64,000 bases of DNA from Escherichia coli (GTDB lineage: Bacteria > Pseudomonadota > Gammaproteobacteria > Enterobacterales > Enterobacteriaceae). Position 1 is the stretch's first letter. Each line of letters opens with the position of its first letter. The position numbers and the translations under genes were made by a program. A model generated the notes under the pieces. That model saw only the letters and a list, made by a program, of their open reading frames with translations, made no database searches and was not told where the DNA came from. Positions 4,749 to 49,760 of this stretch are shown piece by piece. Location: the NCBI RefSeq assembly GCF_003334355.1, contig NZ_QOWP01000007.1, one strand, 5' to 3'.

Positions 4749-6251
4749 GTGTCCACTGCAAACCAAAAACCAACTGAAAGCGTCAGTTTGAACGCTTTCA
4801 AACAACCGAAGGCGTTCTATCTCATCTTCTCGATTGAGTTATGGGAACGTTTTGGTTATTACGGCCTACAAGGAATTATGGCTGTTTACCTGGTTAAACA
4901 ACTGGGTATGTCTGAAGCGGATTCAATCACCCTTTTCTCTTCCTTTAGTGCCCTGGTTTATGGTCTGGTCGCTATCGGCGGCTGGTTAGGTGACAAGGTA
5001 CTGGGTACTAAACGCGTAATTATGCTCGGCGCTATTGTGCTGGCGATTGGTTATGCTCTGGTTGCCTGGTCTGGTCACGACGCCGGTATCGTTTATATGG
5101 GTATGGCGGCTATTGCGGTCGGTAACGGCCTGTTTAAAGCTAACCCGTCTTCTCTGCTTTCTACATGCTATGAGAAAAACGACCCGCGTCTGGACGGTGC
5201 ATTCACCATGTACTACATGTCCGTCAACATCGGCTCTTTCTTCTCTATGATTGCTACGCCGTGGCTGGCCGCGAAATACGGCTGGAGTGTTGCGTTTGCG
5301 TTGAGCGTTGTAGGCCTGCTGATCACTATCGTTAACTTCGCCTTCTGCCAACGCTGGGTTAAACAGTACGGTTCAAAACCAGACTTCGAGCCTATCAACT
5401 ACCGTAACCTGCTGCTGACCATTATTGGTGTTGTGGCACTGATCGCTATCGCCACCTGGCTGCTGCACAATCAGGAAGTTGCGCGTATGGCGCTGGGCGT
5501 TGTTGCCTTCGGTATCGTGGTTATCTTCGGTAAAGAAGCCTTCGCGATGAAAGGTGCTGCGCGTCGTAAAATGATCGTTGCCTTCATCCTGATGCTCGAA
5601 GCCATTATCTTCTTCGTGCTGTACAGCCAGATGCCAACGTCACTGAACTTCTTTGCGATTCGTAACGTTGAGCACTCCATTCTGGGTCTGGCCGTAGAAC
5701 CTGAGCAGTATCAGGCACTGAACCCGTTCTGGATCATCATCGGTAGTCCGATTCTGGCCGCTATCTATAACAAGATGGGCGATACCCTGCCGATGCCAAC
5801 CAAGTTTGCAATCGGCATGGTGATGTGTTCTGGTGCGTTCCTGATTCTGCCGCTGGGTGCGAAATTCGCGTCTGACGCTGGTATCGTGTCTGTAAGCTGG
5901 CTGGTCGCAAGCTATGGCCTGCAGAGCATCGGGGAACTGATGATCTCTGGTCTGGGTCTGGCAATGGTTGCTCAACTCGTTCCGCAGCGTCTGATGGGCT
6001 TCATTATGGGTAGCTGGTTCCTGACCACTGCCGGTGCAAACCTGATTGGTGGTTATGTTGCGGGTATGATGGCTGTGCCGGATAACGTTACCGATCCGCT
6101 GATGTCACTGGAAGTCTATGGTCGCGTATTCTTGCAGATTGGTGTCGCTACTGCCGTTATTGCAGTACTGATGCTGCTGACCGCGCCGAAACTGCACCGC
6201 ATGACGCAGGATGACGCTGCAGACAAAGCGGCGAAAGCAGCCGTAGCGTAA
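4749..6251 (+). CDS. dtpA: Proton-dependent di/tripeptide permease DtpA (500 aa), GTG start
   Basis: Track ORF; POT-family signature region [22 protein letters not shown]; strong terminator downstream. Confidence 0.93.
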
Positions 6252-6272
6252 AATTCAGGGAAACTCTTTTAC

Positions 6273-6307
6273 AAGCCGCTAACTTTTCGTTAGCGGCTTT
6301 TTTTTTG
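6273..6307 (+). terminator. Intrinsic terminator of dtpA
   Basis: Hairpin AAGCCGCTAAC/GTTAGCGGCTT followed by T9. Confidence 0.85.
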
Positions 6308-6356
6308 TTCAGCAACGCACTACCATACTTTAAACCACAGACAAAAGGAGTTACCG

Positions 6357-6962
6357 ATGAAATTGTTCTACAAACCGGGTGCCTGCTCTCTCGCTTCCCA
6401 TATCACCCTGCGTGAGAGCGGAAAGGATTTTACCCTCGTCAGTGTGGATTTAATGAAAAAACGTCTCGAAAACGGTGACGATTACTTTGCCGTTAACCCT
6501 AAGGGGCAGGTGCCTGCATTGCTGCTGGATGACGGTACTTTGCTGACGGAAGGCGTAGCGATTATGCAGTATCTTGCCGACAGCGTCCCCGACCGCCAGT
6601 TGCTGGCACCGGTAAACAGTATTTCCCGCTATAAAACCATCGAATGGCTGAATTACATCGCCACCGAGCTGCATAAAGGTTTCACACCTCTGTTTCGCCC
6701 TGATACACCGGAAGAGTACAAACCGACAGTTCGCGCGCAGCTGGAGAAGAAGCTGCAATATGTGAACGAGGCACTGAAGGATGAGCACTGGATCTGCGGG
6801 CAAAGATTTACAATTGCTGATGCCTATCTGTTTACGGTTCTGCGCTGGGCATACGCGGTGAAACTGAATCTGGAAGGGTTAGAGCACATTGCAGCATTTA
6901 TGCAACGTATGGCTGAACGTCCGGAAGTACAAGACGCGCTGTCAGCGGAAGGCTTAAAGTAA
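6357..6962 (+). CDS. gstA: Glutathione S-transferase GstA (201 aa)
   Basis: Track ORF; sequence recalled as E. coli GstA; length match. Confidence 0.92.
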
Positions 6963-6969
6963 TAGCCAT

Positions 6970-6993
6970 CGGCCCACAGGTCGTTGTGGGCCG
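6970..6993. terminator. Hairpin between convergent gstA and pdxY (possible bidirectional terminator)
   Basis: GGCCCACAGGTCGTTGTGGGCC inverted repeat. Confidence 0.55.
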
Positions 6994-7005
6994 AAATGAG
7001 ATATT

Positions 7006-7869
7006 TCAGAGCTTTGTTGCGCTGAAGTAATGTTCTGGTTTGGCAATACGATCCTGAGCAGCCACCACTTGCAGCTCATATTCCTGCATTGCTTTGGTGG
7101 TCACCATGATTTCGTAGACTGCAGCGGTCACATGTTCCAGCGCCTCCTGCAGCGTTGCCCCCTGAAGCAGTTTCACCAGCAGTAAACCGCTCGTCACATC
7201 ACCAACACCTACCGGCTGGCGCATACCAAAATCCACCAGCGGACGGCTGATATGCCAGGCTTCATCGGCGGTGACCAGCAGCATTTCAAAACGGTCACGG
7301 CTGTAGCCAGCTCGCGCCAGGTGTTTAACCAACACAATTTGTGGCCCTTGCGCAATGAGTTCGCGCGCTGCCAGAACCGCTTCTTCGACGTTATTTACCG
7401 CATGCTCACAGAGTATTTCCAGCTCAACCAGATTTGGCGCAATGATATCGCTGGCAGGCAAACCGTGCCGCACATGAAACTCTGCGACACCCGGTGCAAC
7501 GATACAGCCTTTTTCCGGATGCCCCATTACCGGATCGCAAAAATATTTCGCCTGCGGATTCGCGGCTTTCACCTGACGGACGATACCGAGGATATGTTCA
7601 CCCTGCTCCGCCGATCCCAGATAGCCACTTAATACGGCATCACAGGTGTGTAATTTATCAATGGCGGCAATGCCTTGCACAATTTCGGTTAAATGGCTGG
7701 GCGGCATCACGCAGCCAGTCCATTTGCCGTATTGGGTGTGATTAGAAAATTGAACGGTGTTCAGCGGCCAGACGTTCGCGCCCAGGCGGCGCATCGGAAA
7801 CTCTGCCGCACTGTTACCCGCATGACCATAAACAACGTGAGACTGGATAGCGAGAATATTTTTCATCAT
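7006..7869 (-). CDS. pdxY: Pyridoxal kinase PdxY (287 aa)
   Basis: Track ORF; downstream of tyrS on same strand; length match. Confidence 0.92.
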
Positions 7870-7877
7870 GTTCCCTG

Positions 7878-7912
7878 TATAAAAACCAGGGGGAGTGATT
7901 TCTCACTCCCCC
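7878..7912 (-). terminator. Hairpin plus T-run between tyrS and pdxY (reverse strand)
   Basis: GGGGGAGTGA/TCACTCCCCC stem; A5 on + strand immediately 5' (T-run on - strand). Confidence 0.6.
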
Positions 7913-7927
7913 TTTCCACTTAATGCA

Positions 7928-9202
7928 TTATTTCCAGCAAATCAGACAGTAATTCTTTTTACCGCGACGCAGTAAGGTAAAACGACCAAATAGACGATCT
8001 TCTTCTTTAAAGAAGTATTCAGGATCGGACTGTTTTTCACCGTTAATGGTGATGGCATTGGAGGCGATAGTTTTACGTGCCTGACCACGGGAAGGTTGCA
8101 GTTCAGAATCGACCAGTGCCTGCATCAGGTCTGCGCCCTTTTCCATCTCAACCATCGGTACGCCGTCCTGCGCCAGCTGTTCGAAGTCCGCTTCACTCAG
8201 CGCACTCAAAGAACCGCTGAACAGGCATTCGGTAATACGTTTTGCCGCCTGTAAACCTTCTTCACCGTGAACCAGACGAGTCACCTGCTCCGCCAGTACA
8301 TACTGGGCGCGCGGTGCTTTACCGCTGTTTTTATCTTCTTCTTCCAGGGCGTTGATCTCTTCAATGCTCATAAAGGTGAAGAACTTCAGGAAGCGGTAAA
8401 CGTCGGCATCCGCAGTGTTGATCCAGAACTGGTAGAATTTGTACGGGCTGGTTTTCTTCGGATCCAACCAGACTGCGCCGCCTTCAGTTTTACCAAATTT
8501 GGTGCCATCTGCTTTAGTGATCAGCGGAACGGTCAGGCCAAACACCTGATTCTGATGCAGACGACGGGTCAGGTCGATACCAGAAGTGATGTTACCCCAC
8601 TGGTCAGAACCACCAATTTGCAGCACCACACCGTACTGTTTGTTCAGACAGGCGAAGTCATAACCCTGCAACAGGTTGTAGGAAAACTCAGTGAACGAAA
8701 TCCCCTGATCTTCACGGTTGAGACGCTGCTTAACCGCTTCTTTGTTGATCATCTGGTTAACGGAGAAGTGTTTGCCAATATCGCGCAGGAAGGTCAGCAC
8801 ATTCATATTGCCGAACCAGTCATAGTTGTTCGCCGCGATAGCAGAGTTTTCTCCACAGTCGAAATCGAGGAACGGGGCAACCTGCTTACGGATTTTGTCC
8901 ACCCACTCCTGAACAGTTTCTTCGGTGTTCAGCTTACGCTCGGCAGCTTTGAAGCTCGGGTCGCCAATCAGACCCGTCGCGCCGCCTACCAGCGCAACCG
9001 GCTTGTGGCCCGCCTGCTGGAAGCGTTTCAGGCATAACAATGGAACAAGATGCCCCAAATGCAAGCTGTCAGCGGTAGGATCGAAGCCGCAATAGAGCGC
9101 GATCGGGCCTTGCGCCAGTCGCTCTGCTAACGCTTCCTCGTCCGTCACCTGGGCTACCAGCCCCCGCTCTTGCAATTGTTTAATCAAGTTACTGCTTGCC
9201 AT
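7928..9202 (-). CDS. tyrS: Tyrosyl-tRNA synthetase (424 aa); track ORF trimmed by 4 codons to [10 protein letters not shown] start
   Basis: Class I aaRS motifs visible (HLGH region [10 protein letters not shown]; KFGKT); recalled N-terminus MASSNLIK. Confidence 0.92.
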
Positions 9203-9330
9203 CAAAATCTCCATGTATATAACGACTGCACCTTTGCCGGTACACGACTTTTCGCCAGATGCGAAAGAGACATAGAATAAAGTGCCAGAATCAGGAGTAC
9301 CAGCGATTAAAGCAAGATTTTTGCATCTTT

Positions 9331-9987
9331 TCAGGGTGCAAGACGATCAATCTTCCACGCATCATTTTCACGCTGGTACAAAAAGCGGTCATGCAGGCGA
9401 TGCTCACCACCCTGCCAGAACTCAATCTGTTCAAGGCTGACGCGAAAACCGCCCCAAAAGCTCGGCAATGGCACTTCGCCCTGTTGAAACTTCTGCTTCA
9501 GCTCCAGGAATTTACTTTCAAGGATACCGCGGGCAGAAATGCGACTGGACTGCTTCGAAACCCATGCACCAATCTGGCTATCACGCGGGCGGCTATGAAA
9601 ATATTTCATCACTTCGAGAGTCGAAAGTCGTTCTGCTTTACCGATCACCATCACCTGGCGCTCAAGGGTATGCCACGGGAACAGCAGGCTAACGCGCGGA
9701 TTATTTTCGATTTGATGTGCTTTACGGCTGCCGAGGTTGGTGTAAAACACCATGCCTTTTTCGTCGTAATGTTTGAGTAAAACGATGCGCTGATAAGGCT
9801 GACCATGTTCATCCACGGTAGCGACCACCATCGCGGTAGGGTCCGCCAGTTTGGCTTCACAAGCCTGAGAGAGCCAACGTTCAAAAAGGGTTAATGGATC
9901 GGCGGGAAGATCGCGGCGGCGTAACCCGCCTTTGGTGTATTCACGGCGCAGATGCGCGATTTGCTGCAATTCGTCGTTATCAGACAT
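9331..9987 (-). CDS. pdxH: Pyridoxine/pyridoxamine 5'-phosphate oxidase PdxH (218 aa)
   Basis: Track ORF; upstream of tyrS on same strand (pdxH-tyrS-pdxY arrangement). Confidence 0.92.
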
Positions 9988-10045
9988 GGTTTTCTTTACG
10001 GATTGTCAGTGGGTGACGCTATTGTGCGCCGCCCCTGGAAAAATC

Positions 10046-10375
10046 TCAACGCTGTGGATTTTGTAACTGACAGTTATTCAAGACGATGCGGTCGCGTTTA
10101 TAGACAGTCGCTTCATCGCCTTTCGACCAGAAAACATAGATTCCGTCAGTGTAACGCGCGCCAGAGGCTGAAATGCCCTGTTTGAGATGCAGTAGTTGAT
10201 TATCGTAAACAAAACTGACCTCCTGGCGCGGATTATTCAGTTTGACCGTCAACGGTTTTTCATCACACTGGTATTCCAGCGTATCGGTTTGCATGCGCTC
10301 AACCAGCTGATTAAAGGCGCTACAGCCGGAGAGAAGGACCGGCAAAATGATAATTAACAGTTTTTTCATAGTCAT
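10046..10375 (-). CDS. mliC: Membrane-bound lysozyme inhibitor of C-type lysozyme, lipoprotein (109 aa)
   Basis: Track ORF; lipobox LLSGC at N-terminus; length match. Confidence 0.9.
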
Positions 10376-10472
10376 ATCCCGAAGACTTTCCTGGTCTGGA
10401 GGGCAATACGCCCTCCCTAACGTTCCAAGTGTAACGGCAGACGCGGTAAGAAAAATTCAGTTAACTCTGATA

Positions 10473-11582
10473 TCACGGGTTAGCGGGGAAAATAGCCCCC
10501 AGTACCGTCTCCTGGCTTGCGCCAGTGACGGAAGGCAGATTTCCTGGTAATCCCGCCAGCGTCCGCCAGGCAAGCCAGGCGAAAGCCAATGCTTCCATGT
10601 CATCGCCACTAATGCCAACGGCATCGGTGGTGGTGACTTCTGTGCCTGGCAGTAATGCCGCCAGACGCGCCATGAGTAGCGGATTACGACTACCTCCACC
10701 ACATACCATCAATCGTTCGCAGCCACCGCTCAACAAAACTTGTTCAGAAATGGTCACGGCGGTGAGTTCTGCCAGTGTCGCCTGCACATCTCGGGGATCA
10801 ACACCCGGAAAATGGCGCAAATGGCGCTCCAGCCAACCATAGTTAAAGTATTCGCGTCCGGTGCTTTTCGGTGCAGGTTGCGAGAAATACGGGTCGCTGA
10901 GCATATTTTGCAGCAGTGGGAGAATAACTTTACCCGCCCGTGCCCACTCGGCATCTTTATCGTAAGGTTTACCGGCCTGACGCCAGATCCAGGCATCCAT
11001 CAGCATGTTACCAGGACCGGTATCGTAGCCCCCAACCGGCTGCCCAGGAATGAGCAGTGACAGATTGGCGATGCCGCCAATATTGAGCACCATTCGTCGC
11101 TCGGTTGGGTGAGCCAGCAGCGCATGATGGAACGCAGGTACCAGCGGTGCGCCTTGTCCTCCCAAGGCAATATCGCGACGGCGAAAATCACCGACAACCG
11201 TAATTCCGGTGCGTGCCACAATTTGATTGTTATCGCCAATCTGTAAAGTGTGTGGTGCCACGCCCGTCGGTTCATGCCAGACGGTTTGACCGTGACAACC
11301 GATCGCAACTATATCTCTTGCCTGCAGATTTTGTTCCTTAAGCAAGGCATTGACCGCATCAGCAAAAAGTCGCCCGAGTTGAGTATCAAGCTGTCCAAAC
11401 TGCGAAAGTGTAAGCTGCTGGCCCTGGCAAATATCCAGTACAGCCTGTTTCAGAGATACCGGGATCGGCCAACTCAAACTTGCCAGCTGTGCGACCCGGT
11501 GTTCATCAATTGTCGCCAACACAACATCAACACCATCAAGGCTGGTGCCTGACATAACGCCAATAAAGCGGCCCGATTTCAT
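10473..11582 (-). CDS. anmK: Anhydro-N-acetylmuramic acid kinase AnmK (369 aa)
   Basis: Track ORF; N-terminal [19 protein letters not shown] typical of AnmK; length match. Confidence 0.92.
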
Positions 11583-12331: not shown

Positions 12332-12359
12332 GCGTGTGGTCAGGTTACTGACCACACGC
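12332..12359. terminator. Shared hairpin between convergent slyB and slyA
   Basis: GCGTGTGGTCAG/CTGACCACACGC 12-bp perfect stem. Confidence 0.7.
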
Positions 12360-49711: not shown

Positions 49712-49731
49712 TAGTACCTGTGAAGTGAAAA

Positions 49732-49760
49732 ATGGCGCACATTGTGCGCCATTTTTTTTG
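49732..49760 (+). terminator. Intrinsic terminator of lpp
   Basis: ATGGCGCAC/GTGCGCCAT stem followed by T8; preceded by A5. Confidence 0.9.

Follow-up and report, generated by a model that had tools for sequence, protein, structure and literature searches.

A conserved hairpin between tyrS and pdxY of Escherichia coli is very probably the known leaky intrinsic terminator within the pdxH-tyrS-pdxY operon

In Escherichia coli the genes tyrS, for tyrosine--tRNA ligase (TyrRS), and pdxY, for pyridoxal kinase 2, follow each other on the same strand, and the locus raises the question of how an abundant, essential synthetase and a kinase made at a low level can both be produced from shared promoters. 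The DNA analysed here, referred to as the window, is a stretch of 64,000 nucleotides (GCF_003334355.1, contig NZ_QOWP01000007.1). Comparison of its open reading frames (ORFs) with the RefSeq annotation of strains ER1709, which has a near-identical sequence, and MG1655 identified window positions 4749-11582 as the dtpA-gstA / pdxY-tyrS-pdxH-mliC-anmK region of E. coli. MG1655 positions were converted to window positions with an offset of 1,708,020, which places the pdxY start (MG1655 1715889) at window 7869. The tyrS and pdxY genes are both encoded on the minus strand and are separated by a spacer of 58 nt. The features of this locus are listed below.

7928..9202, minus strand: tyrS coding sequence, tyrosine--tRNA ligase (ORF and RefSeq annotation of identical sequence; MG1655 1715948-1717222)
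7930-7928, minus strand: tyrS stop codon TAA (ORF)
7914..7927, minus strand: stop-to-stem spacer of 14 nt, UGCAUUAAGUGGAA (read from the sequence)
7903..7913, minus strand: 5' arm of the terminator stem, AGGGGGAGUGA (fold; covaries with the 3' arm across species)
7899..7902, minus strand: GAAA tetraloop of the GNRA type (fold; found in nearly all relatives)
7888..7898, minus strand: 3' arm of the terminator stem, UCACUCCCCCU (fold; covariation)
7878..7887, minus strand: tail GG-UUUUU-AUA, with the U-run at 7885-7881 and two G's right after the stem that break the proximal U-tract
7884, minus strand: mapped RNA 3' end (Term-seq, MG1655 1715904, coordinates converted)
7871..7876, minus strand: putative Shine-Dalgarno-like motif AGGGAA before pdxY (proposed from the letters alone)
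7006..7869, minus strand: pdxY coding sequence, pyridoxal kinase 2 (ORF and RefSeq), a gene that appears to be expressed by read-through

From the tyrS stop codon to the pdxY start codon, the spacer RNA on the minus strand reads UAA-UGCAUUAAGUGGAA-AGGGGGAGUGA-GAAA-UCACUCCCCCU-GGUUUUUAUACAGGGAAC-AUG. It contains the hairpin AGGGGGAGTGA-GAAA-TCACTCCCCCT, running from window 7913 to 7888 and followed by GGTTTTTATA (7887 to 7878). The stem has 11 perfect pairs, of which seven are G-C and four are A-U. The hairpin starts 14 nt past the tyrS stop, ends 18 nt ahead of the pdxY start and lies on the sense strand for both genes. A preliminary description of this stretch had noted a hairpin with a T-run on the reverse strand between the tyrS stop and the pdxY start, and the stem at 7913-7888 within the 58-nt spacer bears this out. 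The span that it gave, 7878-7912, is correct apart from missing the outermost A-U pair at 7913, and the stem that it called a 10-bp GC stem is real but has 11 pairs, four of them A-U, so that "GC" was slightly overstated. Two traits of an intrinsic terminator are found here, namely a stable, G+C-rich, short-loop hairpin on the sense strand and a U-rich tract directly 3' of it, the latter weaker than canonical through the proximal GG. In the tail GGUUUUUAUA, five U's fall within the first 8 nt 3' of the stem. The E. coli U-tract is both short and offset from the stem by the GG, which makes it weaker than the textbook form and than the tract of most relatives.

Taken by itself, the hairpin of 26 nt has a folding energy of -21.6 kcal/mol; that of the 76-nt spacer region is -24.8 kcal/mol (z = -3.98), a value that none of 200 shuffles equalled. 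Within a 201-nt context, the hairpin is kept in both the minimum free energy (MFE) structure and the centroid, and no competing pairing or antiterminator for the terminator arms was found in that 201-nt fold. A weak helix between the U-run and the pdxY Shine-Dalgarno region, which would sequester the latter, appeared in the MFE structure of the 76-nt region; it is present neither in the centroid nor in the 201-nt fold and was rejected as not robust. A scan of the 6-kb neighbourhood ranked the tyrS-pdxY hairpin as the top terminator-like match. To obtain the chance expectation, the complete 64-kb window was shuffled 200 times by a dinucleotide-preserving procedure, and both strands were scanned for sites having at least 10 perfect pairs, at least six G-C pairs, a loop of 3-8 nt and at least five T in 8. 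Comparable sites occurred with a mean of 0.05 per shuffled window over both strands, and any site at all was found in 2.5% of the shuffles. The combination of hairpin and T-run is not a chance occurrence.

Other strong hairpin-plus-T-run sites of the window are located at 6273-6299 (plus strand), 12332-12359 (minus), 36892-36917 (both strands), 49728-49756 (plus), 28139-28164 (plus) and 25691-25720 (minus). The site at 6273-6299 comes after dtpA, the hairpin at 12359-12332 is the slyA terminator and has a Term-seq 3' end, and the site at 36892-36917, which scores on both strands, may be a bidirectional terminator.

An intrinsic terminator is also expected to leave a discrete RNA 3' end in or beside its U-tract in vivo. 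The preliminary description had pointed to Term-seq as a check, and an abundant end has in fact been published. A curated Term-seq 3' end, classified as the primary 3' end of tyrS, lies at MG1655 1715904 on the minus strand with a mean of 41,205 reads in LB at an OD600 of ~0.4, and the flanking sequence given for it is exactly the tyrS-pdxY hairpin (Adams et al. 2021, eLife 10:e62438, PMC7815308, supplementary file 1). Once converted, this in vivo end falls at window 7884, on the second U within the U5 run and 4 nt past the stem. The offset was cross-checked at slyA, whose 3' end at 1720347 corresponds to window 12327, 5 nt past the hairpin at 12359-12332. The tyrS 3' end is found in one of the three curated condition lists, that for LB OD 0.4, and is missing from those for LB OD 2.0 and M63 (Adams et al. 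2021). The Rho-termination-region file of the same study (PMC7815308) is without a tyrS or pdxY entry, which gives indirect support for Rho-independence. No tyrS or pdxY entries were found in the supplements of TERMITe 2025 or SMRT-Cappable-seq 2018.

A mapped end of this kind might have another origin. The hairpin could act mainly in mRNA stabilisation or processing, with transcription running on through pdxY and the tyrS-only end being generated by a 3'-5' exonuclease or by endonucleolytic cleavage. Term-seq alone cannot tell termination from processing, and the mapped end, 4 nt past the stem, is nearer to it than the 7-9 nt at which release usually occurs. However, terminated transcripts are commonly trimmed back to near the stem, and an end at this distance suggests 3' trimming following release. 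The comparison of related genomes below bears further on this point.

Within E. coli the element is conserved. Every one of the 5,426 complete E. coli genomes has a match to a 401-nt query over the site, flanked by annotated tyrS and pdxY. Each genome carries a single copy of the 76-nt element, which is at least 99% identical in 5,285 of the 5,426; for the 76 nt across the spacer in the window, thousands of E. coli genomes show 100% identity. The tyrS Leu codon at window 7991 (minus strand) reads CTA here versus CTG in ER1709, a synonymous change; this base is shared by none of the top E. coli genomes, and the best of the 5,426 matches the 401-nt query at 99.8%. The change sits 78 nt upstream of the hairpin, and the hairpin element itself is unchanged.

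The survey of relatives took one genome per species and comprised 80 Enterobacteriaceae loci encoding PdxY, with 72 distinct spacers. The tyrS gene lies directly upstream of pdxY in 79 of the 80 loci, the remaining locus having too little upstream sequence. Nearly all of the 72 distinct tyrS-pdxY spacers have a hairpin followed by a T-run at the corresponding position; the hairpin begins 11-15 nt past the tyrS stop in most of them and ends 21-46 nt ahead of pdxY. The stem sequence falls into families. One, GGGAGUGA/UCACUCCC, is carried by Escherichia, Salmonella, some Citrobacter and Kosakonia, and a second, GGGGCGUGG/CCACGCCCC, by Enterobacter, Klebsiella, Raoultella, Kluyvera and most Citrobacter; further paired variants include GCAUGG/CCAUGC, GCGCGG/CCGCGC and GAGCGA/UCGCUC. 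The loop is almost always GAAA. In most other genera the tail is an unbroken T-rich run of the TTTATTTTTT type, and a stem-adjacent interruption of the U-tract is seen as GG in E. coli and as GA in other Escherichia. Between the two families, conservation is poor in the 14 nt that lie upstream of the stem.

When 40 distinct stems were aligned on their loops, standard pairs filled 91.4% of cells, and both sides had changed in 7 of the 11 pairs. Covariation scored 0.341 versus 0.181 ± 0.013 in shuffles, and 0 of 500 shuffles reach the observed value. When the partner column was moved by 1-3 columns as a slid control, pairing fell to 40-68%. The structure has been kept by selection, as these compensatory changes demonstrate. 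A count over the inner nine pairs gave 12 G·U cells for the tyrS-sense strand and a single A·C cell; selection therefore acts on the structure of the sense-strand RNA and not on an antisense RNA or duplex DNA. Cedecea neteri and the Enterobacter sp. Ag1 group (loci L074, L075, L076 and L078) carry an unrelated hairpin, CACGGC-UUAU-GCCGUG followed by U8, in the same place; the function is therefore conserved without conservation of the sequence. In DNA, this replacement hairpin, CACGGC-TTAT-GCCGTG, stands between an A-run and T8 and looks bidirectional.

These data also bear on whether the element works at the level of DNA. It is a perfect inverted repeat in DNA and could on that ground be taken for the site of a dimeric regulator or for a copy of a REP/BIME-type repeat. 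REP/BIME elements have many dispersed copies, and this candidate was rejected, the element occurring at one place per genome in the 5,426 E. coli genomes. A binding site is likewise at odds with half-sites that covary rather than stay conserved, with G·U pairs tolerated on the sense strand only (the 12 versus 1 above), which indicates RNA and not duplex DNA, and with an unrelated hairpin taking its place in some genera. We consider a DNA-level palindrome scarcely credible.

As for a hairpin that mainly stabilises or processes the message, such a role is compatible with conservation and covariation. However, a T-run is conserved after the hairpin in nearly all relatives, even after the unrelated replacement, and a pure exonuclease barrier needs none. 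The literature also describes termination at tyrS-pdxY, as reportedly do Yang and colleagues. A purely stabilising or processing element is in our judgement very unlikely, and the stabilising and terminating roles of the hairpin are in any case compatible with each other and not exclusive.

The spacer of Enterobacter sp. BIGb0383 (L056:2296-2503) is of a different size, 208 nt versus about 60. An insert of ~150 nt, which has terminal inverted repeats (CCCATTAGGC...GCCTAATGGGG), follows the tyrS stop and precedes the conserved hairpin; it has the look of a small insertion of mobile or MITE-like type.

How pdxY is transcribed beyond this hairpin depends on the operon around it. Yang and colleagues reportedly found that an attenuator lying between tyrS and pdxY, putatively Rho-factor-independent, ends ~92% of the transcripts of tyrS, and that pdxY is completely cotranscribed with tyrS. 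The layout of the locus points in the same direction. No promoter fits downstream of the terminator because the gap from the stem to the pdxY ATG is only 18 nt; pdxY mRNA would therefore come from read-through, which would make the element a leaky internal terminator, that is, an attenuator. In the literature pdxH-tyrS-pdxY is treated as a single operon, and its termination has been the subject of earlier work (Lam & Winkler 1992, J Bacteriol 174:6033; Yang, Tsui, Man & Winkler 1998, J Bacteriol 180:1814).

A complete terminator, with pdxY transcribed from its own promoter, would be in keeping with the strength of the hairpin, and nothing further was found in its favour. Against it, 18 nt from stem to ATG are too little for a promoter and a 5' UTR, and a promoter inside tyrS would still need read-through of the hairpin. 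A scan of the minus strand at 7870-9200 found no sigma-70-like promoter; its sensitivity is low, as it was also blank in the pdxH-tyrS spacer where the tyrS promoters are expected. Together with the operon named in the literature, these points make a complete terminator extremely unlikely. The preliminary description had proposed a partial terminator that sets the ratio of tyrS to pdxY expression, and this proposal is supported by the canonical architecture, the Term-seq end, the 18-nt gap and the published operon, although it is not new.

The pdxY start reads ATGATG (window 7864-7869). The Shine-Dalgarno-like AGGGAA is spaced by only 1 nt from the first of these ATG codons and by 4 nt from the other, at 7866, so that translation may really begin at the second. 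For PdxY of relatives outside Escherichia, the alignment mostly begins at residue 2 (MKNIL...).

Read-through into pdxY could be constant, or it could be modulated by a ligand, a protein, an sRNA, ProQ/Hfq or a ribosome at the tyrS stop. The stop-to-stem distance of 11-15 nt in most species and the nearly invariant GAAA loop would suit a regulated attenuator, as would a 3' end that is curated in one of three growth conditions. However, ordinary terminators commonly have GNRA loops and lie a short distance past the stop codon, and absence from two condition lists could reflect thresholds or expression level. A search of window 6900-10100 against Rfam gave no match at E<=1, and a known structured RNA family was rejected on this result. 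A riboswitch, T-box or regulated-leader class was likewise rejected, with no Rfam match at E<=1 and no competing pairing in the 201-nt fold. A regulated attenuator has against it the lack of antiterminator pairing in that fold and of an Rfam family at E<=1, and also the poor conservation of the 14 nt upstream of the stem between stem families. Such regulation is highly unlikely in our view: with Rfam blank, no antiterminator fold and an upstream segment that is poorly conserved, nothing points to it. To our knowledge, no regulatory input at the tyrS-pdxY site is known or indicated. In the part of PMC6172242 considered here, pdxY figures only as a predicted sRNA target, with no binding.

A narrower version, in which the extent of the leak is tuned by a ribosome at the tyrS stop 11-15 nt upstream or by ProQ/Hfq on the GAAA-capped hairpin, is improbable. 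If it were true, expression of PdxY, an enzyme of vitamin B6 salvage, would be coupled to translation status or growth phase, and the Escherichia-specific GG or GA in the U-tract would be an evolved setting of the leak.

We conclude that the hairpin is very probably the known Rho-independent (intrinsic) terminator at the tyrS 3' end, acting as a constitutive, leaky attenuator in the pdxH-tyrS-pdxY operon. Its structure, its conservation with covariation, the acting strand and the in vivo 3' end are matters of observation. In the mechanism that we propose, RNA polymerase would pass the tyrS stop codon and the nascent RNA would fold into the 11-bp stem capped by GAAA. The U-run would then weaken the RNA:DNA hybrid, and most complexes would release the transcript there, while a minority reading through would supply all pdxY mRNA. 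The mechanism of termination, its Rho-independence and the fraction of read-through are drawn from inference and from the literature. Part of the leak may be due to the interrupted proximal U-tract of E. coli. The retained hairpin probably also shields the 3' end of tyrS mRNA from exonucleases. The same promoters could in this manner yield an abundant, essential synthetase and a low-abundance salvage kinase at very different levels, and a leaky internal terminator between tyrS and pdxY would be how E. coli makes abundant, essential TyrRS and low-level PdxY from shared promoters.

Partial termination inside an operon has precedents. The internal attenuators of rpsU-dnaG-rpoD and rplKAJL-rpoBC are intra-operon partial terminators that set expression ratios. 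The tyrS-pdxY element resembles them in being a terminator between cotranscribed genes with shared promoters, with high expression upstream and low expression downstream, and differs in the genes concerned, there being no sequence relationship to the tyrS-pdxY site. The element was further compared with canonical E. coli intrinsic terminators as mapped by Term-seq (Adams et al. 2021, PMC7815308; Dar & Sorek 2018, PMC6061677). It shares with these a G+C-rich stem (here of 11 bp), a stable GNRA tetraloop, a downstream U-run and a sharp 3' end located in that run, whereas its U-tract has only five U's and is offset from the stem by GG. Unlike operon-end terminators, it is intra-operon, 18 nt ahead of the next start codon, and would work as a leaky internal element. 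It is the same element at the same locus as the E. coli K-12 tyrS-pdxY attenuator (Lam & Winkler 1992; Yang et al. 1998), already known since it was established in the 1990s and seen again in genome-wide 3'-end maps. What is added here is modest and consists of conservation of structure and not of sequence, with compensatory changes, one lineage-specific replacement and an atypically interrupted U-tract in E. coli.

A second Term-seq 3' end lies in the first gene of the same operon. This pdxH end, classified as internal, is located at MG1655 1717931 on the minus strand with 26,039 reads (Adams et al. 2021), which corresponds to window ~9911 (minus strand), ~76 nt past the pdxH start, and it could be a site of premature termination or of processing at the operon head.
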